Part shown: positions 2,961 to 55,600 of the stretch, one piece after another
How positions within the stretch are numbered: position 1 is the stretch's first letter
Layout of the letters: every line of letters starts with the position of its first letter
Assembly (NCBI RefSeq): GCF_963676685.1
Contig: NC_092344.1
Location: forward strand, 117,986,001-118,050,000
DNA from: Mytilus edulis
Lineage: Eukaryota
Direction: 5' to 3'
Length of the DNA stretch: 64,000 bases
Position numbers and translations under genes: made by a program
The notes under the pieces: generated by a model
Database searches by the model: none
What the model was told of the DNA's origin: nothing
Seen by the model: only the letters and a program-made list of their open reading frames with translations

Positions 2961-3846
2961 CAACTGCTTTGTAATACGTTTACAATCATTTTGTGGCTAT
3001 AAACTTTTACCAATTTTCATTTTATTGACATATACTTTTGGTTAATAAACTTTCTAAAGCAAACAGAAAGTAGATAATTAGACTAGCTTTCCCCCTCTAT
3101 TATCAATGAACAATAATCGTGTATGTGTTTTGAATAATCATAATATTGTTTTGCATTGTTTGTATCTGGTTGGGTATCATCCTGAAATCATGGAAAATAA
3201 AACACAGAATCCAAAATTGCAGAAAAATAAAGCAGTCTTTCCTCATTTCCTGGATCCTGAAAAATTAAATCATTTAATAATTCATATATTTAAACCTTTG
3301 AAAGTGAAAATGCAGGTGACAATAACTCTTTTGTCAGTGGCGTAGCTACCATTATTACATTGGTTGCAATGAATTACATTGATTTCCCAGTTAGATAAAA
3401 ACCGATAATTTCACATGTGAAATAAACATGGTTATTTCACTCTCTGACGTCATACAACAATAGGCGTTGTCAAGACGTCGATAACGTCGGATCAAAACAA
3501 ATTGTCAATGCGTAGGAAAAAGATATAGTTCCTTACATTTTCTACATTAATTTCATAAAAAAAGCCATTTACCAATGTAATAAAAAGAATAACTAATCGC
3601 CGTATTTGACAACTTGTGACCGAACGCCGCTATGGATTAAACTTGTGCTGCGCACTCGTTTAATCCATGCGTTGTTCGGTCGAGCATTGTCTTATATTTG
3701 ATATTCAAATATGACGATTAGTTATACTATAATTGACGCAACAAGGAACTTGCGTGCACAAACGAAATGGCAAAACAAAATATCATTATTCAAAATCATA
3801 ACAGTCAAAAAAAGAAAGCGTGCCATTGACTGTTACTATATATATC

Positions 3847-5229
3847 TGTTGGACTCTAAAGTGCGATGGGGACGCTAAAGTTCGATGGTCACGCTAAAGT
3901 GCGATGGTCTACGCTAAAGTACGTGGTTCCATACGCTAAAGTGCGATGGTCCGGGAAAATATAGACGTAAAAACGTAGTTCAATAATGACGTTAACAGTT
4001 GTTTATACAAACTAAAAATGAGCATAATATATTAGGAATATTTGATTTACAATTTTTACACCATATGTCCATGACTTACGAGTAATTAATGTCCATGACT
4101 TACGAGTAATGTCCATGACTTACGAGTAATTGATTGAATTTAACCTTTCTTTGTCGGATGAATCACAATGTTTTTTCGAGTGCTGGAAAAAGGACTTGTA
4201 TCCTACAGTCGACCATTTTACTATATAAATACAAAACTGTATACGCATAATTGTCCTGCTTCTATTTGAAGCGAACGGATACATTCGAATCATTGTTTAT
4301 GCGGCAGTTTACTTTGTGATCCCCGTTAAAATGCCGTCGATTTTAATGAAAAGTAACGTCGGTAAAATAGAGATACATGTTTCCATGCGTTTACTATAAA
4401 TTGTCTGCTAAAACATAAGTTCATACTGTATATTGTAGGAATACAGGAAAAAAAGAAAGCTTGGCGAACATTGCATTTCTCTCGCATTTAGATTTAAGCT
4501 TATGCAAATAAATGTTGCATATTCCGACAATGAACGAATTATGGATTTTGAATTTTCAATGACAAATGTAAGGGAGGTTGTAACATTAGTGTAAATGGCA
4601 ATCTACACCAATTATCCAAATTATTCAATACGCTCCGAATTGTTAAAATTCATTTTACATGAAATATAATATTAGCAAAACATAAATTTTGCATTTCTCT
4701 CGTATTTAGATTTAAGCTTATGTACATATTCTGACAATGAACGAATTAGGGATTTTTAATTTTCAGACAAATGTAATAGGAGGTAGGTTGTAACATTAGA
4801 GTGAAAGGCAATCTACACCAATTATCCAAATATTCAATACGCTCCGAATTTTTAAAAATTCATTTTACATGAAATATAATATTAGCAAAACATAAATTAC
4901 CTTTTTAGCAAATTATTACTTGGTCGGACTTGTTAATTTAGAAACAATTACTTCCGCCTACCGGTAAATTGTAAAGCCTATCACATATGTTATACCTTAG
5001 CATAATATAGCATAATAGCTTTTGCAAAAAGACTTTTTAAACCTCGATGTTTTAATACTTCGAATCTTACCCTTTGGACCAACACACTTTAGCGTGATAG
5101 ACCATCGTACTTTAGCGAACAAACAACCAACGCACTTTAGCGTGAGACATCATGGTACGTTAGCGTAGACCAACGCACTTTAGCGTGACCATCGCACTTT
5201 AGAGTACCATCGCACTTTAGAGTCCTACA
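3847..5229. mobile_element. Non-autonomous TIR transposon with TGT...ACA ends (Ginger-like) and subterminal CTAAAGTGCGATGGT repeats
   Basis: Left TGTTGGACTCTAAAGTGCGATGG matches right CCATCGCACTTTAGAGTCCTACA. About 5-7 subterminal repeats per end, set in a (TA)n tract, with an internal ~215-bp tandem duplication at ~4470-4900. Confidence 0.7.
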
Positions 5230-5441
5230 TATATATAGAATTCAAGAACTGTAGGTACTCATCCTATTCAGGCGAATCCCGCTGTTGTTGGTATTAAGGA
5301 TTATTGGCACGTCACTTTGTATATACAAATGTTTGACCATCTACCACTGTGTACTAAACGAAGTACGATTGTCTTATCATTTGGAAGACATGTTTTACTG
5401 AATTGAATTAATGTTTTACTTTCTTTCTTAGACAGTACAAG

Positions 5442-8400
5442 ATGACATTAGAGGCAATACGTTACACCAGTGGTTCTTTGATGTTGCTGGATCAGTTATT
5501 ATTGCCAAATAAATCAGAATATATCCAGATAAAAAACACAGAGGATGGATGGAACGCAATAAAGAAGATGCAGGTATTACAATTGGCTATTTATAATATA
5601 AGGGTAACAAGAAAGAACAATCCCTTCTTTAAATACTTTTTTTAAAATTTTAAATATCAGATTGGTTAAAATTTTCAGAAATGGATATCTTTAAAGGACT
5701 TTACAATCATTTATTCATGAGATTCACTTTGGTACATAGTCCAGAGATGGTAAAGTAAGAGGTAGAAAAAACTCATCATGAAGTAGAATTGATATAATTA
5801 ATGTTTAAGCAGTTGCATTTGTGTATTGTATAGACAAAATGGCAGCAAGTTCATTTTAATGTTAAAAAGTACATGTATTTGTATATAAAGGTTTGAGGAG
5901 GACTTTGCACTGTCATTACAGACTGTTGAAACCTAACTGTAGAACTGTCACTAAAACAATTCAGTAACTATATGGTATTATATTTGTATTTAGATTCGAG
6001 GAGCACCTTCCTTTGCTGTTGTAGGCTGTAGAATTGATACCCAAACAATTCAGTAATTATATGGTATTATATTTGTATTTAGATTCGAGGAGCACCTTCC
6101 TTTGCTGTTGTAGGCTGTAGAACTGATACCCAAACAATTCAGTAATTATATGGTATTATATTTGTACTTAGATTCGAGGAGCACCTTCCTTTGCTGTTGT
6201 AGGCTGTAGAACTGTCACTAAAACAATTCAGTAACTATATGGTATTATATTTGTACTTAGATTCGAGGAGCACCTTCCTTTGCTGTTGTAGGCTGTAGAA
6301 CTGATACCCAAACAATTCAGTAACTATATGGTATTATATTTGTACTTAGATTCGAGGAGCACCTTCCTTTGCTGTTGTAGGCTGTAGAACTGATACCTAA
6401 ACAATTCAGTAACTATATGGTATTATATTTGTACTTAGATTCGAGGAGCACCTTCCTTTGCTGTTGTAGGCTGTAGAACTGATACCCAAACAATTCAGTA
6501 ACTATATGGTATTATATTTGTATTTAGATTCGAGGAGCACCTTCCTTTGCTGTTGTAGGCTGTAGAACTGTCACTAAAACAATTCAGTAACTATATGGTA
6601 TTATATTTGTACTTAGATTCGAGGAGCACCTTCCTTTGCTGTTGTAGGCTGTAGAACTGATACCCAAACAATTCAGTAACTATATGGTATTATATTTGTA
6701 CTTAGATTCGAGGAGCACCTTCCTTTGCTGTTGTAGGCTGTAGAACTGATACCCAAACAATTCAGTAACTATATGGTATTATATTTGTATTTAGATTCGA
6801 GGAGCACCTTCCTTTGCTGTTGTAGGCTGTAGAACTGTCACTAAAACAATTCAGTAACTATATGGTATTATATTTGTACTTAGATTCGAGGAGCACCTTC
6901 CTTTGCTGTTGTAGGCTGTAGAACTGATACCCAAACAATTCAGTAACTATATGGTATTATATTTGTACTTAGATTCGAGGAGCACCTTCCTTTGCTGTTG
7001 TAGGCTGTAGAACTGATACCTAAACAATTCAGTAATTATATGGTATTATATTTGTACTTAGATTCGAGGAGCACCTTCCTTTGCTGTTGTAGGCTGTAGA
7101 ACTGATACCCAAACAATTCAGTAACTATATGGTATTATATTTGTATTTAGATTCGAGGAGCACCTTCCTTTGCTGTTGTAGGCTGTAGAACTGTCACTAA
7201 AACAATTCAGTAACTATATGGTATTATATTTGTACTTAGATTCGAGGAGCACCTTCCTTTGCTGTTGTAGGCTGTAGAACTGATACCTAAACAATTCAGT
7301 AACTATATGGTATTATATTTGTACTTAGATTCGAGGAGCACCTTCCTTTGCTGTTGTAGGCTGTAGAACTGATACCCAAACAATTCAGTAATTATATGGT
7401 ATTATATTTGTACTTAGATTCGAGGAGCACCTTCCTTTGCTGTTGTAGGCTGTAGAACTGATACCCAAACAATTCAGTAACTATATGGTATTATATTTGT
7501 ACTTAGATTCGAGGAGCACCTTCCTTTGCTGTTGTAGGCTGTAGAACTGATACCCAAACAATTCAGTAACTATATGGTATTATATTTGTATTTAGATTCG
7601 AGGAGCACCTTCCTTTGCTGTTGTAGGCTGTAGAACTGTCACTAAAACAATTCAGTAACTATATGGTATTATATTTGTACTTAGATTCGAGGAGCACCTT
7701 CCTTTGCTGTTGTAGGCTGTAGAACTGATACCCAAACAATTCAGTAACTATATGGTATTATATTTGTACTTAGATTCGAGGAGCACCTTCCTTTGCTGTT
7801 GTAGGCTGTAGAACTGATACCCAAACAATTCAGTAATTATATGGTATTATATGTATTTAGATTCGAGGAGCACCTTCCTTTGCTGTTGTAGGCTGTAGAA
7901 CTGATACCCAAACAATTCAGTAATTATATGGTATTATATTTGTACTTAGATTCGAGGAGCACCTGCTATTGCTGTTGCAGGATGTTTAAGTCTAGCTGTA
8001 GAACTAATACCCAAACAATTCAGTAATGTTAAAGAGTTAGTGGACTTTGTAGTGACAAAGTTAGAATACCTAGTAACCTCAAGACCTACAGCTGTAAATA
8101 TGCTAGATGCTGCTAAATTATATACTGCAAGGATGACAGAGTATGCTAAACAACCAGATCTCACACCAGATGTCATCAAAAATAAGTATGTAATTCTAAT
8201 TAAACTAAGGAATAATTAAACAAAGAGTTATTATATATAAGATAACTCTACTTGTACTTGTTATCACACACTTCACCAGTGTCAATGTGATGATCGTAAC
8301 TGCAATTACAATCATCCCAAAATGTCGGACACAAATTTAGTGAAATTTTAGAAGGCTCATTTCTCCACTTTGACAGTTTTTTTCAGATTTGTATTAGGTC

Positions 8401-11400
8401 AAAAAATATCCTTATAAGCATTGCCATTGAAATATTTCTTCGTACATGATGGAAAAGGAACAAGAAGAACGAAAATTGAGATACAAGAAATTACGATGAT
8501 GATCGTAACTTTTATTTATTTTTATCAATGATGATCGTAACTTTTATTAAATATGATCGTAACTGTGTGTTCCAACAAAGCATTTTCAGATAAATAAAGC
8601 TGTCTGGTATGCGAAAAAGTGTAAATATCAGTTAATATTGTGATAATAATGAGGAACAGTCACCGAGGGAAGGGTAATGTCCTATTGGTTAGTGCACAGA
8701 TGGTTATGACTTTGCTAGATTTCGTTTTTTCCCCATCTAGTTCAATATTAAAATGCATTGGGGGTTAACAACGTTACATATATTTTATATAAATAAGGTA
8801 ATTGGACATTTCATATTAATGGCCAGTTTGGTAAAATTGGAGGATTTTTTTAAAATTATTTTTCCATACACTTTGTAGGGAAAAAAGTACCTTTCGAGAA
8901 TCTGGTATTTTGGGGGGAATTCAGACTTTATATTTTTTCATTAACAGATATAGGATTTTGAAAGGAGAGGTAGAAAAATAGTGCATTTAGAAGTGTAACC
9001 AAATCTGTTGAATAAAAAAACCCAATGAAACCATCAATAAAGGGATCTATTTGATTTTTATTTCAGGAAGGGCTTGGATGACAAATTTTTCCTGCTTTGT
9101 TCTAAGTTGAAATCTCTATCCAGCGTTTTTTTGGTTTTTTTTCACTCTATTCGGTCCTGTCTTTTTGCATTAGTTAACCTGATTTTTTTACCTAAATTGT
9201 CATCCTGACTTTTGGTTTGGCAAAGTTGTTCTTCCGTCCTTTTTGTTTTACTCAAATCTCCTGCTTTTTTTCCAAATCCCCCCTCCCTATAAACAAATCA
9301 AATAGTAGCTATTTGATATTTTTGGCTTAAACAACTTCTTCGACTAATTTCAATAAAACATGTCATATATCGTAAGTGTAAGGATTTATACATGAAATCT
9401 AATATGAACGTGTATACCATCTATTTCAGCTTTTCCTTCTTTATATGCATAAATTGCCAACCCATGGAAGTCCAGTAGCGGAATCACAAGATTTTCATAA
9501 AAGGGGTAGAAACTGTCTGCAAAAGAGTAGGCCTGCTACAGTCATGCTTCATTGGTTCTCTATATAATCAACCAAATTACTACTAAGAAAAATTATTAAG
9601 GACACATGCATATAAGCCTGCTAATCCCCTCTTATGTCATTTCTTTTTGACAAATAGCGGTGTTCATTCAGCTCATTTTGTTTAGTTTTAAAATCATATT
9701 ATTTTCACTAATACCAATATATCGTGACTGCTAAATAGGAAAAAACACATCCTAAATTTTAAGTTACGATCATCATTTTATAAAAACAGGTCCAAGTTAC
9801 GATCATCCATAGACGAAGTTACGATCATCATCTAGTTTTTTTTAATCTCGATTTTCGTTCTTCTGGTTGTTTTTCTATCATTTAGGAAAAACACATTCAA
9901 TGGTAGTGCTTATTAAAAAAATTCTTGATATAAAACAAATCTGAAAATAAGCTGTTAAAGTGGAGAAATCGGCCTTTTAAAATTTCCCTAAATTTGTGTC
10001 CGCCATATTGGGATGATCGTAATTGCAGTTACGATCATCACGTTGACACTGGTGACACTTCCAGCTAACAGAGACCAAAAAGTAAACAATATGCATTCTA
10101 CATTGTTGAAGGTTGACATGACTTTCATTATTCATTTATTTTTGTGGTTACAATTTTCATAAATTGAGGAAAATTTATGTTTTCACAACTTTTTAACACT
10201 GAGAGTGATTTAAGATCAGGATCAAACATCAGTGACAGTTAGCACTGGAAATAAATACAAAATGTTTTTTGAAAATTGTTGAAAATCAAATTTTGCTTCA
10301 TTGTTTAATTTATTGTTAGAATAGTCACTGAGATCGAACAGATGCTAGAGGATGATGTAAATGTTAACAAAAGAATGGGACAATATGGTGGAGAAGATAT
10401 ACTTAGTCGTCTTGGAAACAGTTCAGCTACTATTCTGACACATTGCAATACTGGTTCCTTAGCAACAGCAGGTTATGGCACAGCACTAGGTAAAATCTTG
10501 GATAAAAATAGATTGATTTAAAGATCTGTTTGAAACTCATAATTAAAATTCCAACTTGAAATTACATTTACTTTTTTATGTTTATATTTGGGTTATCTCC
10601 CCTATCCATACTGACAATTATTAAATATTTCTACTTTGCTATGATAGTATATGTTAAATTTATTTCATATGTATCATCGTGTAATGTGTTTTCGTACTAA
10701 TAACAATTTTCACTGCTTACGGTTTTTACTGTTGAGTTTTTATTTAGGTGTTTACTCAGATTTAAAAAGCATGTCCTGTAGATTGATTTTAGGTATCTAG
10801 TTTTTTTGTCAATGGTTTCTACGATTTTTTACTGTTTCCGATTACTTTGCGATTTTTGTGTGTCAAAAAAACGGCGTCATGTGTTTTCGTATGAAATAAA
10901 AATTGGATCAGTACACGGACAGGAAATGACTACAAAATCCGGAAATAAATTTTTTCTAAAGTCGTGGTTCTGGTGATCGCTTGAATCGTAAAAAAAGTTA
11001 TTAAATACTTTTCAGTACTAAAAATTACTGGTAAATAGTGTAAGGTTGGTGTTTCGTGTGATGAAATTTTTAGATTTTGATTAATTTTCAGATTGGCACC
11101 TGGTTTGTACAAAATACATTATTTTTTCTAAAATAAAATGCAGTTTTCAAAATTTATGATTAAATATAAAAAGTTAAGACTGTTTTCATCTTCATGTATC
11201 AAGGATGTATAAAAAAAAATTGTCAATGAAATATTGAATAGTTGGATTTTGAACAACCATTTTATATAAGAACCCTGCTAATTTTAACTCGATGGTTTGT
11301 AATTAAAACGGCCAAAAAAACACATGACAGTCATATGTCTTGAAGATCCGGTGTCTGACTTGCAAAAAACATATCTTGACTTTATTTTAACCTTCAGAAT

Positions 11401-14400: not shown

Positions 14401-15620
14401 TGCCTCTTTAGTAGTCTGCAAACAGCTGTGTCAACCCAATGCTGGAAAATGAAAATAAGATTTTATAAATTGGTGCAAAGCACTTGAGTGGATATACTTT
14501 CATCAGGTACACTCAACCCAAAAATTTGAAAGCTAAGGATGCATTCATAACTACTTGTGAAGAGCTAACTGACTTAAATGAACAAATATAAATAGCCAAA
14601 TCAAAAGGGGAAATTACACAGTGTTGATGGAGAAAGAAATGCAATGATCAGTGAGTATGATGCAGGAGTTTTTGTAGACATTGATGCCTTATTTTTCAGG
14701 AGTTGTAAGATATTTACAGAGCAAACAAAAGTTGGATCATGTTTACTGTACAGAAACCAGACCCTACAACCAGGGAGCTAGGTTAACAGCTTATGAAATA
14801 GTCTATGAGAAAATGCCAGGAACATTGATCTGTGATAGTATGGTGGCCATGTTGATGAAGAAAAATAAAATATCAGCTGTTATTGTTGGTGCAGACAGAG
14901 TCGTTGCTAATGGTGATGCTGCCAATAAAATAGGGACGTACCAAATAGCCATAGTGGCTAAACATCATGGTGTGCCATTCTATGTGGCTTGTCCATCCAC
15001 TACGTATGATGACACATTACCGGACGGAGATCATATTGTAATAGAGGAAAGACCACATGGGGAGATGACTTCTGTAAATGGAACCAGAATTGCTGCCCCA
15101 GGTATATTTTTAAATAAATATTATTTTATTCATTCAAAAAATAAAAGTAAATTTATTCATTAAACCAAATACCTTGACTAAAGTTAATTTGGCTCTTTAA
15201 TTTTCAGATATTAATTATTTTTTTTACCAAATATCTTCTTTGACGCTTTGTCAAATATTTTAAATTTCAAATTATTTGAACAACACACTTCATCGGGAAA
15301 ATTTCAATGGATATATAGCAGTTTGACAAACACAAATTTTGGTCATAGAGAAGCTTAATATTTCCTTATCAATAGAACTTGATGAAAACGTTCAGCTGAT
15401 TTTTACAGAGTTATCTCCCTTTATTTTTATGTACCACCTTAATATCCAAAGTAATTTATATCTGCTGAGAATTTAAAATTATATTTCAGGTATTGGTTGT
15501 TGGAATCCAGCCTTTGATGTCACACCAGGAGAGCTTATTACAGGGGGAATAATTACAGAATTTGGTGTATTCAAACCATCAGAGCTTCAACAAAAAATCA
15601 GACAAGCAAAATCCAAATGA
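5442..15620 (+). CDS. MRI1: Methylthioribose-1-phosphate isomerase (methionine salvage)
   Basis: Exons 5442-5573, 7950-8185, 10320-10489, 14700-15101, 15490-15620 total 1071 nt (356 aa + TGA), all GT-AG and in phase. Motifs [78 protein letters not shown]. Confidence 0.97.
5969..7949 (+). repeat. 22 x 89-bp tandem array made from the MRI1 intron-end / coding exon 2 start
   Basis: ttag|ATTCGAGGAGCACC recurs every 89 bp from 5994 up to the real exon start at 7950. Unit = ~25 nt of intron end + exon start carrying a 14-nt deletion. Confidence 0.95.
8274..10054. mobile_element. Non-autonomous DNA transposon with long (~280 bp) imperfect TIRs and 6-bp TSD
   Basis: CACCAGTGTCAA(T/C)GTGATGATCGTAACTGCAATTAC inverted at both ends; ACACTT at 8268-8273 and 10055-10060. 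Confidence 0.85.
10675..11657. mobile_element. MITE-like TIR element
   Basis: CATCGTGTAATGTGTTTTCGTA vs terminal TACGAAAACATATGACACGACG (imperfect inverted); flanks ATGTAT / ATATAT. Confidence 0.6.
11889..13010. mobile_element. Helentron-associated non-autonomous element (HINE), family A
   Basis: Sub-terminal TATACGACCGCA / TGCGGTC(A/G)TATA inverted motif, end hairpin and internal ~150-bp tandem units. Reverse-complement of the copies at 58931 and 62204. Confidence 0.75.
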
Positions 15621-37697: not shown

Positions 37698-40600
37698 TCA
37701 TCGTGAAGATCGGCGGTCTCTGTGGCGATGTCTGTGTTCTCTTTCTCTCCCATGTTCACGTTCACGGTCACGTTCCCTGCTTCGATCTCGTTCACGACTT
37801 CTACGTCTCATTGGTTCTGAAGTCCTTCTTAAGAAATCATCAACATCTCTTTCATACTGAAAGACAAACAAAGACACTATAATTTTCAGACTTATTAAAG
37901 GAATATGGTATTCTATAAAACTTTGTGAAATATATATGTTGCTAGTTCTGACTTTATTATTGTGTTACACCAAGGGTTCTTTAACAGTCACATTTGCCAT
38001 CCATAACCAAGGTTTAGAAATAAATAATTCATGATTAATATTAAAAACTTGGATATTATGAGGTCTGTTATTGAATCCTCCAGATACTGTTTTAATAAAA
38101 CAATCAATATAACAAACATGTAAGGAGAAATATATCTGTCCTTCATACTTTACAGTGTTTAGCATTATGGTGAATTAAAATTGTTTCTTTTATAATTAAA
38201 TGGCAATAATATAATATGGAAACTATTCAAAACAATGAACGTCCAGGAACCATGACTGATCATGAATAAATGCAGGGCCAAATAATCTGTATATAAATTC
38301 AGTGACATACCAGTTATAATCTTTTTATCAAATCTTTGAAGACCCTTTTTTCCTATTCTAGGCTGTTTTCATACCAAGCATTTTGTTTGTTTGTTTTTTT
38401 TGCCGTTTTTAGTATATTCAACATGATATGTGACATGTATGCATGTACTATTTGTTTCAAACCATCATGACAAAGAATTAAAACTTTGATCATAAGCTGA
38501 CACTCTTCTTCTTAATTGGCCAAATCTGCTATATATTGGACTTGAAGAAGGAAGGGCACAAGTTTTATTTCATCAAACCAATTCTTATTAAAACAGTTTT
38601 TGTTTCAGAATGAGAAACATGTTTGTTCCTTTTCTAATGTCAGCTATTAAATCAAAATGTATACCTTTTCACAAATAACACTCAATAATACTTATTGTCA
38701 CTATAACATTGGTACTTACAGATCTTTTATCTGACCGTGATGCTGACTGAGCATATTCTGGGACTGGCATGTATTCTCTTTGTCTTTCATGATATGGATT
38801 ATGATAAGGTGGCATAGGTTCCATACCAAACCCAGGTGGCTAAAATGTAAACATTATATACTTAAACTGGCTATCCTTTATCTCTTTCAATGCAGTAAAA
38901 TACCCTTCGATTGTATTTTTATGAACCATCTTAAGCAATTTGTGGTGTTTTCTCTCTATCTTATTTCAATGACAGGATATTAAATCGTGCCTCAAATTTA
39001 AAACTTGTATGGCATTTTTTTTGTTTTTTGTTTTTTAGAATCTACCTCAAGAGAAGTGTTTGAATTTATACTATTACATTGCAAGACAATACAGCTGTTC
39101 AAAAATAATTTTGTTGGTGTTAATTAGTCATAAACAAGAATTGCAACATGTTTTTTAAAGTGGCTATATATTAAACAGAGTAGAAATACTAACTGGTGGT
39201 CCATAAGGTGGCATCCCTGGGGGTACGGGTGGTCTGGCATGCTGGAATTCTCTAATGTAGTCATTGTAAGACTGAAACAATAAAATATTAACATCATTTC
39301 TAGTTCTGTAACGTAATGGTCTATCAATAAAAGAAATAACTAATGTTAAACTTAATCGTTACAAATCAAGGGCTTTATTATATACTAGTAATTTAGTTTG
39401 TTTTTTCCTATGCAGATAATTTTCTCAAAATTCAAAATGATCAACAAGAACTTACCCCATTTATAAATGTATCTCGTCTTACTCCTGCATATCTGGGTGA
39501 CCTACAATACAGTGTAATATTTTAACCACACTTATATAACAGCTAGAATAACTATACAGAGCCATATTTTCAGGGTTTATTTTTTTCTACTAGAAGATGT
39601 TACTTATTGTCTATCAAGACAAGTTTGTTCTTTGCCAATCATATTTTCTCAAAAATTCCCATTTTAATTTGACTGTTTACCCAAATCCTATGATACAGAT
39701 TGATGGACTGATTGATTGCTGTTATCTCAATGCCACTTTCAGGACTACTGGGTATGTTCTTTTTTATATAAAGTGACAGTCCGTTTTGATTGGTGGAGGA
39801 AGCTAAAGTATTGCAGAGAACCACTACCTTCAACAGGAAAACTGTCAATTTATATAAAGTGACGGTCAGTTTTGATTGGTGGAGGAAGCTAAAGTATTGC
39901 AGAGAACCGCTACCTTCAACAGGAAAACTGTCAATTATATAAAGTGACGGTCCGTTTTGATTGGTGGAGGAAGCTAAAGTATTGCAGAGAACCGCTACCT
40001 TCAACAGGAAAACTGTCAATTTATATAAAGTGACGGTCAGTTTTGATTGGTGGAGGAAGCTTAAGTATTGCAGAGAACCGCTACCTTTAACAGGAAAACT
40101 GTCAATTTATATAAAGTGACGGTCAGTTTTGATTGGTGGAGGAAGCTTAAGTATTGCAGAGAACCGCTACCTTTAACAGGAAAACTGTCAATTTATATAA
40201 AGTGACGGTCAGTTTTGATTGGTGGAGGAAGCTTAAGTATTGCAGAGAACCACCACCTTCAACAGGAAAACTGTCAATCAAAATCAATATCAAAGGAATC
40301 GATGAGGTTCTTACACACAATCTTAGTGTTGACTGGCTATCAATTATTTAGACCGGTCAGCAACAGAAACTCCCATATAATAAAGAAATAGGTCTAAATT
40401 GGTTATAGAATGTGTACTCAACTTTGAAGTACATAAAAAGGATGTTATGTTGATATCATCAGCCAAATAAAATATTAAAGCATTACAGTAAGTGTCTTTA
40501 GTTTATCAAAATATTTTCTGTCAAAATCAATTGAGAGTTCTAATTCTCATAGATTTTATGGGGTTGACAATCTTATCCTTTTTACAGCGTAAAACAAGTT

Positions 40601-46600: not shown

Positions 46601-49600
46601 ACATCTTCAAAAGTAATAAAGTAATAAATACAAATGTTTTAGACAGTTACTGTTCAACAGTCTATACTTACCACATCAAGTTTACAAATTTAGACAGTAA
46701 TTTTTGAAATTATTTATGTTTTTGAAAAAGTTAAAAGAAGTTTGGATGTTCAGAAGTATCACCCTCTGTGTTTCTTTCCTTTATTTTTGGACCAAGAATA
46801 GGACAAAGTTTTGTCACCAAGTGAGATTTCTGGTGATCAGCTTGGTTTTACGTGTAGTGGTCACGTGAAATATAATACAATGTTCAAGTTATTCCTTTAG
46901 AATTACACATGTTGTAGGCTAACCTAAAGAAATCACCACGTCCAAACCGACCGCGGAAATCTCTTCCACGGAAATTTTCTCTTCTACGTTCAATATCAAC
47001 TCCTCCTCCTCCTCGTCCTCGTCCTACTCCCTCTCCCCCATCTCCTCCTGTACTGCCATTAGCTCTCCGTACAGAATGTCTTTTACGAGCTTTTCGCACA
47101 ATGGAACTCAAGTCTACATTTTCATCTGCTGAGAAAAGTTTACACAACATTTCTCCACATTTTGGCTCGATATCCTATAAAATAGAATTTGTCAATAAAT
47201 AAGTAATATCAATTTAATTCTACAGGCATATATATAGGATCTGAATAACTTATACTGATCTTACATTCCTTTCTTTGGAATATATAAGCATTTCTTTAAC
47301 GGGTAATCAGACACCCTGCCTAAATGCTTTCAGGCTTAAAATACTGCTTCAGTCTTCATTTATATAATGTTCAAATCATCTCGCATTGGAACAATTTTCC
47401 TTTTTCTTTTTATGTAGTTTAATTGTAAATCAGTGCAAATTTAACACTGAAGTTGTGCGTTTCAACCCTGTACATGGTAGGTGTTATCGACTACATTCTT
47501 AACTAACTAGGATTATCAGTTGTGAGTTTCAACCATGTTCATGGTAGGTGTTATGGACTACATTCTTAACTGACTAGGATTATCAGTTGTGAGTTTCAAC
47601 CCTGTACATGGTAGGTGTTATGGACTACATTCTTAACTAACTAGGATTATCAGTTTTCCTACAGATGGTTGATGGTTCTCTCCAGCTTCCTCGAACCAAA
47701 AAAAACTGAACGCAATGAGATAGCAAACCCTGATGAAAGTGGTAGTAAACACCAATCAATCAGTGCACATAAAATGAAATTTTTACAAATTCAGAATAAC
47801 ATCAAAAATCAATTTCCTTCTAATGAACATTCTCTGGATAAAGTTTTAAATGAATTGCGGTAAATAAACATGATATATAGTCCTTTTTAAAATATTCAAA
47901 AAGAAATTTGCCGACATAAATGCATACCTGTCCGTCACGACCAATTTTGACAGGTTTGTTGTCATTCCAACCATTGTGTAGATGTTGTGTCTTTGTGAAA
48001 GGTAATTCTCGTCTGAAAATTTGCCATAATATTAAAGTTATTCTTTACAATTATCTAAAATTATTTCTTGAGGTGGTTCAAAAATAACAGACATGGTATC
48101 ATCAAAGTATCATCGTCAAATACAGTATACATGTGAGTTTTTAATTTGCCTATGTAGGTTGTTATCAAATTTTAAAAGTACCTTCTATAGGTACCAGTAT
48201 GTTTGGATTGTACATCTTATACATTTTTTCAATTTTTTTTCATTGATATTGTGACACAGAGGCTTCTCGATATATATTGGCATTTTCAACAATACTCAAT
48301 TTAGTTCAGATTCAAATCAATCCAGATTTCTTGATATTGCCAGGTCTCATTCTAGAATAATAAAATACATATTTGTTCAAATAAATCTTTCGCCTACAAC
48401 AAAATTCACTAAGTTAGTGCTAATTACGATAATCAACAAAATTCACTAGGTTAGTGCTAATTACGATAATCAACAAAATTCACTAAGTTAGTGCTAATTA
48501 CGATAATCAACAAAATTCACTAAGTTAGTGCTAATTACGATAATCAACAAAATTCACTAAGTTAGTGCTAATTACGATAATCAACAAAATTCACTAAGTT
48601 AGTGCTAATTACGATAATCAACAAAATTCACTAGGTTAGTGTTAATTACGATAATCAACAAAATTCACTAAGTTAGTTCTAATTACGATAATCAAACTAC
48701 ATAAGATGCATATTTTAATATTTAACAATGAATCCCTTGAATCATTAAACATAAGTTTTACATATATCATGTATATCAAACCTGTTAATCCAGTCAAGTT
48801 TAAATACCCCACTAAGTGCTCTAGCACTTAAACCAGGAGGTAGAACCCATCTGATTGGTGGATGATCTTTGGTGGATTCATCAGCAATTCTTGCATAACC
48901 TGTAAATAGTCAAATGATTGAAATCACTGTAAATTCCTATTATGATTTCTTTAAACTCTGGTTTACAAAATGTATTTGTATCTTAAACATGTATTATTAA
49001 TATAAAAAAAAATGCCTTTCAAAATCACTCCCCATTTTTTCTGGAATATCTTAATTCTTTTTGTTTTTAACTTTCTAATTAGTAAGTAGAAGAATCAATC
49101 TTCACAGAAGCTACTTTTATATATTAAAGAAAGTGACCTCTTTAAGAATGAGCTGAATAATTGTCTCTGCAAATAGGGGTTTCAACATAACTTTGTTAAA
49201 TCTAGTATTTACAATACCTTGAAATTTTCCACTTTCTTTAACAGAAAATATCAATATCACATTGTCATGGTTCTGAAAAAAATAATTGAAAAAGATGTTT
49301 TAATTGTTTTTATAACACCAAATTATTCCTCACAGTACATAGAAATGAAAATTTAGCAATTATTTTTAGCAGCTGTACATTCACTTTTTCATGGCTTAAT
49401 AATTAGTAGTCAACCAATAAACATAGCTTAAATTTAATTCATATTGTATTTAACTACATTTAAAATCAACTATTCCTATACATATATTTATTTCATTTTG
49501 ATATTGTACCGAAATCTATTTTTTTTAAAATCCAACATAACCTTCCAAAGATCATTTAAATCAATAAAATATAACATAGTTTGTTTTCTAGCTCACCCTA

Positions 49601-52600: not shown

Positions 52601-55600
52601 GAATATTTCATCAATGAAATTCCAGTCAGATATTCTCATGAATATCCCTTTCATATAAGATACAAATTTTATTAAGTCTGATACAGATTTTTGGTAGGCA
52701 AGAAAGTTTCAACTTAGGCACTACACAGGCATCAAAAGGTGTCATTATGGAGTAAAGGGAGATATATCAAAAGGTGACATTATGGAGTAAAGGGAGAGAT
52801 ATCAAAAGGTGTCATTATGGAGTAAAGGGGGAGATATCAAAAGGTGACATTATGGAGTAAAGGGAGAGATATCAAAAGGTGTCATTATGGAGTAAAGGGA
52901 GAGATATCAAAAGGTGTCATTATGGAGTAAAGGGAGAGATATCAAAAGGTGACATTATGGAGTAAAGGGAGAGATATCAAAAGGTGTCATTATGGAGTAA
53001 AGGGAGAGATATCAAAAGGTGACATTATGGAGTAAAGGGAGAGATATCAAAAGGTGTTATTATGGAGTAAAGGGAGAGATATCAAAAGGTGTCATTATGG
53101 AGTAAAGGGAGAGATATCAAAAGGTGTCATTATGGAGTAAAGGGAGAGATATCAAAAGGTGTCATTATGGAGTAAAGGGAGAGATATCAAAAGGTGACAT
53201 TATGGAGTAAAGGGAGAGATATCAAAAGGTGACATTATGGAGTAAAGGGAGAGATATCAAAAGGTGTCATTATGGAGAATAGGGTTATTATCTGACCACA
53301 TCCTTAATTTTTAAATCCACTATTACAGTGAGTTGACTGTTAGTGTTGCTCTCCACCAATTGCAACTCATTCAAAATTTTGACTAAATTGCAATTTGTTT
53401 TATTAAACCAAATTGTTCAACTGGACAGAAAAATTGAACAAATTGTTCAGTCAAAATGTGAAAGTGCAAGGTGATAAAATAAAATATACTTACAATCCTA
53501 TAAGACTTTAACTCCACTTTAATGATGTTGCAACAAAAAATGGTTTATCAGTTTGTATAGTTATATTATATTCATTTCCATGCTGAAGGGGAACTGTTTA
53601 TTTTGAATTGCTATTAAATTGTCCAAACTAAGCTTTCATATAGTTTTTCTTTCTAAAAGTATTCTATATTTATAAGAATCAGATATCATTTTAAATAAAA
53701 CATCATATATTCAGTAAAATATGTGTGAAATAACAATATGCTATTGATAAATTTTCAGGGGGGATAACCTAAAATATTATTCTTTTGAATAAAGACTTTT
53801 TGAAAGAAAAGTTATTATCTCCCCCATGGAAACTTCCTACAAACATATATTGCAATTTTACACATATTTTACTGAATATGAAATGTTTTAATTCACATAA
53901 TGTCTGATTCTTATAAATATACAATACTTTTTTGAATTGCTATTAAATTGTCCAAACTAAGCTTTCATATAGTTTTTCTTTCTAAAAGTATTCTATCTAT
54001 AATACTAAAATTACAAGGTCCAATTTGTCAGCCGTCATCACGTAAAAACGATGAATAAAAAAATTCAACTTTATATATAACTAATATAGTACAAAGGTGT
54101 AGATTAAAAATTACACCACTCCAGGCCCTTTTGTTTTCCACGTAATTAATATTGCCAATAATTAAGAAGTTCCGGGTCGAGTCCGATACCGATACCAATA
54201 GTATATTCACCTGTTACCGATTACCTTATCTGTACGTTCCGCATCTGACAGGCGCACCACCAAACGGTGTATTCAGGATTAATATGTTATATAGTATACA
54301 CGGGTCATAATCACAGGGTTGACACTACTTAATTGTCAAATTGTTACCTTTTGTAGTATTTTAATCAGTTAGACTTTCTAAGATAACAATACAAATACTA
54401 AAAATCTGGACTAAAATAAGGCGTATAGGTACAGTTATCAATTTGTTAGCGGGCATGACGTAAAACAGCGAATCAAAGAATTCAACTTTATTTATGACTA
54501 ATATAGGACAATGCTGTTGATTAAAAAGTACTCCATTCCAGGACCTTTTGTTTTCCAAATAATTAATATTATCAATAATTGATAAGTTCCAGTTCGACGG
54601 GTTCAAACAGAAAGATTTGAAAGCGGAGAAAACTGTGTATCTTATAATCGGCATGACTTTATCAAATGACAATACTTATACTAAAATAAGGCTTGCGCAT
54701 AGTTATATACTTCAGTCACGGACCTGCGATATCAAGGGTGTGTTCTAGTATTTATAAGAATCAGACATTATGTGAATTAATACATTTGATATTCAGTAAA
54801 ATATGTGTAAAATTGCAATATATGTTTGTAGGAAGTTTCCATGGGGGAGATAATAACTTTTCTTTCAAAAAGTCTTTATTCAAAAGAATAATATTTTAGG
54901 TTATCTCCCCTGAAAATTTATCAATAGCATATTGTTATTTCACACATATTTTACTGAATATATGATGTTTTATTTAAAATGATATCTGATTCTTATAAAT
55001 ATAGAATACTTTTAGAAAGAAAAACTAAATGAAAGCTTAGTTTGGACAATTTAATAGCAATTCAAAATAAACAATTCCCCTTCAGCATGGAAATGAATAT
55101 AATATAACTATACAAACTGATAAACTAATTTTGTCAATACCTGCGAGGGCTGTATAGCCAGTCAAGGTCGTTAAAACACCACCATATATATATAATTTTG
55201 TCACAACATCATTAAAGTGGAGTTAAAGTCCTATAGGATTGTAAGTACGTTTTATTTTATCACCTTGCACTTTCATGACTTGGCTGTGGTTTTCTACAGC
55301 AGTTTGTTCAAATTTCTGACCAGTTGAACAATTTGATTTTAAAAAACAAATTGCAATTTGGTCAAAATTTTGAATGAGTTGCAATTGGTGGAGAGCAACA
55401 CTAACAGTCAACTCACTGTAATATTGTTCTGATAGCAACTTGCCTGCTTCTTTCTTTATTATCTTCTTTTTCTTTTTTATAACTTTCTTTGGAGATATTT
55501 TCTTCACAGAATATACCTTTTCTGTTTGTTCTGATTCTAAAAAAAATAAGAGCTCAAGCATAACTTTGAATATAAGATCATGCCAAAGTGTAAACCCTTA

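Follow-up and report, generated by a model that had tools for sequence, protein, structure and literature searches.

The MRI1 gene of Mytilus edulis raises the question of how an exon is recognised when the junction that precedes it is repeated many times in front of it, and whether the repeated 3' splice sites are used, regulated or simply passed over. The window analysed here is a stretch of 64,000 nucleotides of contig NC_092344.1 (positions 117,986,001 to 118,050,000 of the forward strand), and all coordinates are counted from its first letter. The array upstream of coding exon 2 is most probably a variable-number minisatellite derived from a duplicated MRI1 intron/exon junction, which is bypassed to the real exon in the RNA examined and is likely neutral. 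Eight of the 24 sequencing runs listed were used, four of DNA and four of RNA.

The MRI1 gene and its surroundings

The gene shows five coding exons which, with GT-AG introns throughout, form an unbroken open reading frame of 356 residues (Table 1), so that the frame of the real MRI1 is intact, as the original prediction had stated. The best PDB match of the exons is 4ldq, with an E value of 1e-55 against 9e-13 for eIF2B-alpha, and exon 2 by itself matches PDB MRI1 with an E value of 2e-11. TIGR00512 ranks top for each of the three exons tested, with scores below its whole-protein cut-off because the exons are pieces of the protein. Judged by these similarities, far better than those to eIF2B, the gene is MRI1/MtnA, predicted to encode methylthioribose-1-phosphate isomerase.

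Table 1. Features of the MRI1 locus (positions in the window).
Feature	Position	Strand	Basis and remarks
MRI1 coding exon 1, coding part	5442..5573	+	ATG at 5442, donor GT at 5574; ORF and TIGR00512 match
Old decayed full-length copy of the intron/exon-2 junction	~5866..5967	+	AG at 5889-5890; exon-like part 5891-5967; 5' limit approximate
Minisatellite, 22 units (21 of 89 nt, one of 87 nt)	5968..7949	+	Unit alignment, TRF
MRI1 coding exon 2 (real, 236 nt)	7950..8185	+	Donor GT at 8186; RNA joins on both sides
MRI1 coding exon 3	10320..10489	+	5' end from 57 loose ends of RNA reads; 3' end from ORF and GT
MRI1 coding exon 4 (402 nt)	14700..15101	+	ORF, GT-AG; PDB and NCBIfam matches
MRI1 last coding exon, through the stop	15490..15620	+	ORF and AG

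Other elements surround these exons. Upstream of the MRI1 coding exons, at 3839-5237, an element of about 1.4 kb has TA runs at its two ends and inverted arms built from short tandem repeats, complementary at 91% over 54 nt, and resembles a non-autonomous DNA transposon. Most of the intron downstream of exon 2 is occupied by an element at 8273-10055 whose terminal inverted repeats are long and imperfect (111 nt at 90%, followed by 135 nt at 77%). By eye, the minus strand at about 575-2845 shows coding-like stretches of another gene, which points in the opposite direction from MRI1 and may start near 2845. The window also contains four further young minisatellites: 39763-40278 (six copies of 86 nt), 47451-47655 (three of 67 nt), 48397-48695 (eight of 37 nt) and 52731-53284 (16 of 35 nt), in none of which is an exon boundary obvious by eye.

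Structure of the array

The array is situated between coding exons 1 and 2 of MRI1 and adjoins the real boundary. Its unit exon starts lie at 5994, 6083 and onwards to 7774 and 7861, after which the real exon begins at 7950, and TRF reports a period of 89, 23.0 copies, 96% matches and a score of 3762; the 22 tandem acceptor copies claimed directly upstream of exon 2 are thus found. Each unit begins with 26 nt of intron end with its AG and continues with the first 32 nt of the exon and, beyond a 14-nt deletion, with another 31 nt of it, and the last 26 nt of the array are the intron end of the real acceptor. The AG is kept in all 22 units. The deletion is also common to all of them and, as had been proposed, frameshifts every copy, so that a stop follows 20 codons on, or 16 in three of the 22 units; any of the 22 decoys joined to donor 8186 gives a stop within 20 codons.

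The copying is less exact than the original prediction had it. On the exon side, said to be reproduced base for base, the first 15 nt are identical to real exon 2, but beyond them the unit shows five substitutions besides the deletion (+16, +18, +19, +29 and +43). On the intron side, also described as a copy, identity to the real sequence extends over 14 nt in 15 of the 22 units, but over 26 nt in only three and over 89 nt in two. The donor-like ATG/GTATTA is present, with its GT at unit position +71, but it is weak: it agrees with the U1 complement at 4/11 positions, where the four real donors of MRI1 reach 6-8. Splice-site strength is expressed here crudely, as match counts only, with the standard U1 motif as the reference for donors. 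Another GT, at unit position +60, has seven U1 matches but lacks both the G at -1 and the G at +5. The description of the units as poison mini-exons applies to their use with donor 8186, which brings in a stop in 22/22, but does not take account of a stop-free, in-frame AG...GT stretch of 39 nt (+32 to +70) that each of the 22 units also contains.

In the genome assembly exon 2 has one match, and all of the at least 24 matches of the unit sit at the MRI1 locus; the array is therefore locus-specific and not part of a dispersed repeat family. Searches with the unit and with exon 2 found neither a dispersed repeat nor a second MRI1 copy in the assembly. Tandem mutually exclusive exons were also considered and rejected, the units comprising 63 nt of the 236-nt exon, frameshifted and with stops.

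An older copy of the junction, unnoticed earlier, is located directly upstream of the array. It has stops, it shows 54 of its 77 exon-like letters identical to 7950-8026, it does not carry the 14-nt deletion, and its 3' breakpoint is the same as that of the units. Its last 31 nt are found letter for letter in five of the 22 units (3, 7, 10, 14 and 19, here called type B), while over these 31 nt the remaining units are near the real exon. Four of the five type-B units come after a unit with the same acceptor variant. Contigs of all four DNA runs cover the old copy. From the shared letters the old copy appears to have recombined into the array, and it is likely the seed of the array; the distribution of the type-B units may be the trace of unequal exchange and block duplication.

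Copy number in DNA samples

The DNA sample consists of contigs of four runs from four studies, one for each of the species labels A-D, compared with exon 1, the old copy and unit 1 as reference. The deleted unit is present in all four. With contig depth as a rough gauge of copy number, in a comparison that spans species labels, the ratio of unit depth to flank depth is 18.5 in X1, 1.0 in X4, 35.8 in X5 (perhaps overstated up to twofold, if the flank contig represents one haplotype) and about 2 in X12. X1 may be the source of the assembly. Long arrays occur under species labels A and C. In X4 the flank, one unit and the real exon follow one another on a single contig of 1043 nt; had there been two or more near-identical units, the contig would presumably have been interrupted. 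This one-unit haplotype has an intron end shorter by 2 nt ahead of the real exon, like that of unit 21 in the window, and hence the real acceptor tract is there shorter than that of its decoy. The range of copy numbers far exceeds the error of the gauge. The array is therefore a true VNTR, as the original prediction had supposed, and not an assembly artefact, with about 1 to about 36 units over the four samples; for the precise number of 22 the assembly is the source.

One or more units occur under all four species labels, a persistence that fits neutrality or gene flow and also weak constraint. Word matching with the array as query is uninformative on the presence of the array, because words specific to the array account for 26% of the query, against 28% for those of the exons; the matched shares were 0.52-0.75 in DNA and 0.10-0.33 in RNA.

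Acceptor use in RNA

The RNA sample comprises raw reads of four runs from two studies, all of species label D, with 6-18% of each run read. The reference region contains the last unit, on which reads from any unit are expected to land, and the real exon; exon-2 skipping falls outside it. All 56 reads leaving the upstream exon join 7950 (14, 8, 8 and 26 per run): their loose ends ahead of 7950 are the last letters of MRI1 exon 1, with an agreement of 0.99-1.0. On the other side of the exon, 57 reads join 8185 to exon 3. Within exon 2 the RNA reads show variation at positions 8078, 8114 and 8165. Splicing to decoys was seen in 0/56 junction reads and in no listed joint of the four runs, at steady state and with nonsense-mediated decay (NMD) active, and sense depth on the unit at 7861-7939 is zero in 4/4 runs; the lone trace of a unit is one antisense pair in X21. 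For the 56 reads the one-sided 95% upper bound on decoy use is 5.2%. The one DNA sample of label D, X12, which comes from another animal, has 1-2 units. Since the RNA belongs to a label with low copy number and was obtained with NMD active, it leaves room for an effect of copy number on splicing.

Choice among identical acceptors

Two decoys share the full upstream 89 nt with the real acceptor and, because of this, the intron side cannot decide between sites; branch point, tract and AG would all be common to them. The choice would come from the exon side, where the acceptor nearest to the strong donor 8186 (7/11 U1 matches, with the G at +5) and with intact exon sequence behind it is expected to win, and the best-placed donor of the units lies inside the pyrimidine tract of the next acceptor. 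Exon definition by donor 8186, offered originally as one way in which the decoys could be overridden, is in agreement with the use of the real acceptor but is incomplete: the nearest decoy and donor 8186 delimit an exon of 325 nt, which is a normal size (exon 4 of MRI1 has 402 nt), and exon size is insufficient as the sole rule of selection. Judging from the sequence, position or the altered exon letters would have to complete the selection. The exon changes of the unit create a pyrimidine run and a UAGG, which are candidate silencer-like motifs.

RNA structure was rejected as a cause of decoy skipping, since in folding with three window sizes the real acceptor is not more open than five decoys: the values for an unpaired AG are 0.70, 0.05 and 0.00 at the real site, while those of the decoys range over 0.12-0.95. 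In the decoys the first exon letters fold into a short hairpin, and in the real exon the same letters are about as paired.

A rare product joining a decoy to donor 8186 would carry its early stop upstream of three more junctions and would probably be cleared by NMD. An early stop upstream of exon junctions is, by the usual rule, a target of this pathway. With such products cleared, the cost of the decoys would be low and their copy number free to drift.

Alternative explanations

One alternative is a rheostat set by copy number: each decoy would take a small share of the splicing, and long alleles would lead to NMD or to exon-2 skipping, with less MRI1. The near-identical tract and the AG retained by all 22 acceptors would suit it, as would the early stop after every use of a decoy with donor 8186 and the span from about 1 to 36 copies, and the human ABCA7 VNTR, whose exon 19 skipping grows with length, provides a precedent (PMC5954066, in the extracts available). 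However, recent homogenisation would leave the AGs intact even where selection plays no part, and none of the 56 junction reads falls on a decoy, in a label whose DNA sample is low-copy and with NMD active. In extracts of the published reports, moreover, the use of the ABCA7 repeat pseudo-sites is about 2% and independent of VNTR size (PMC5954066), and lancelet mirages leave splicing undisturbed (PMC3087553, PMC3902484). Regulation of this kind is thus unlikely. A small leak without function, in which the nearest one or two decoys are used at a few percent whatever the copy number and the products are degraded, is improbable too. The normal-sized exon between the nearest decoy and the real donor would permit it, the upper limit of about 5% from the RNA is compatible with it, and single-unit retention in ABCA7 is about 2% in the extract at hand (PMC5954066); on the other side, the four RNA runs contain no such read, and a leak would differ from the neutral explanation merely in degree. 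As regards a poison exon, for which a constrained and conserved element is expected, the four species labels show instead copy numbers from about 1 to about 36 and block-wise turnover.

A much more remote reading makes use of the 39-nt stretch of the units as an in-frame cassette exon, from the internal AG (+30/31) to the GT at +71, adding 13 residues to MRI1. This stretch is stop-free and in frame in 22/22 units and its acceptor has 14/18 pyrimidines, compared with 11/18 for the real acceptor; yet its donor is weak (4/11) and overlaps the tract of the next acceptor, the insert would adjoin the conserved RGAP motif, and 0/56 of the reads entering 7950 had letters other than those of exon 1 ahead, which together make the cassette very improbable. 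That the array was produced by the assembly has a next to negligible probability. Near-identical units are hard to assemble, and the existence of the array is deduced by means other than a single spanning read, but in two studies (X1 and X5) the unit contigs have about 18 and about 36 times the depth of the flank, the unit sequence is found in 4/4 samples and the units contain structured variants. The original prediction had left two options, decoys overridden by the real exon or copy number tuning MRI1 output, and it is the former that fits the RNA, with 56/56 reads at 7950 and no sense depth on the decoys, as in published mirages.

Origin and relatives of the array

For the neutral minisatellite favoured here, the following history is proposed. 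An ancient duplication would have doubled a piece of 103 nt (26 nt of intron end and 77 nt of exon start), of which the upstream copy then decayed. A further copy was likely seeded when this old copy mispaired with the real junction; it would then have lost 14 nt, and unequal crossing-over or slippage may have expanded the resulting 89-nt unit in some lineages, an expansion that would also have mixed in the 3' end of the old copy. The spread from 1 to 36 copies and the block-wise turnover resemble drift.

By its head-to-tail units across a host exon/intron boundary, the splice signals kept in them, its variable length and its restriction to one locus, the array is a mirage minisatellite. No description of the mussel MRI1 array was found in the open-access literature, and the known systems are compared here on the basis of extracts of the respective papers. 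Mirage minisatellites are described in lancelets, in the globin genes BflGb6 (acceptor side) and BflGb9 and in Adh3, troponin C and PGBD5 (PMC3087553, PMC3902484); for BflGb6, one haplotype with six units and one with three are described, and by RT-PCR splicing seemed unaffected (PMC3087553). As in the mussel, the tandem unit joins the 3' end of an intron to the first part of the exon after it, the repeats precede the real exon and keep the AG, their copy number varies by haplotype, and they are homogenised inside with a diverged unit at the edge. According to the extracts, lancelet mirages show normal splicing; in the mussel all 56 junction reads use the real acceptor, in animals that probably have a low copy number. 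The two differ in unit length (89 nt in mussel MRI1, 150-160 nt in lancelets) and in unit number (up to about 20-36 against 3-6), and the mussel array, unlike the lancelet ones reported there, belongs to a bivalve gene, shares a 14-nt deletion and has an older full-length copy recombined into five of its 22 units.

Three human loci show related arrangements. The CBS 844ins68 allele contains a duplicated 3' splice site of which the distal copy is strongly preferred (PMC2630376, PMC1802585). It resembles the mussel locus in that a duplicated junction provides identical 3' splice sites, two in number, of which the distal is used to give a normal mRNA, and it corresponds to the one-unit haplotype of X4; CBS has one extra copy, whereas the mussel has an array. 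In the accounts of CBS, G-runs between the sites steer the choice, whereas the mussel unit contains no G-run and its rule would be the exon-side one outlined above. Intron 7 of F7 contains a 37-bp VNTR whose pseudo-sites are identical, functional but silent, the exon-adjacent site winning by position (PMC1557585). This is likewise a minisatellite across an exon/intron boundary but, unlike that of the mussel, it is on the donor side, has 5-9 sites and was tested by mutation. In intron 18 of ABCA7 the VNTR unit begins with a splice donor and exon 19 skipping rises with length (PMC5954066). It too is a VNTR at an exon/intron boundary, every unit of which contains a splice site whose rare use leads to a premature stop, but it is on the donor side, and in the extracts of the report an effect of length on skipping and expression is demonstrated for ABCA7, which sets it apart from the mussel array.

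The array adds a bivalve, acceptor-side example to the known class of mirages, and as it stands its significance is little. Its useful feature is a natural series at one locus, from one unit to dozens, in which the old parent copy is still present. This makes it a convenient system for the study of spliceosome choice among identical 3' splice sites and of how error depends on the number of decoys, and the length of the array may serve as a marker separating populations or species. It is unlikely, slightly more so than the rheostat in general, that wild mussels present a dose series of about 1-36 identical 3' splice sites ahead of a single housekeeping exon, in which long alleles lose a measurable part of their MRI1 pre-mRNA to decay or to skipping of the exon; if true, this would be an acceptor-array rheostat on methionine salvage, differing between closely related mussels.
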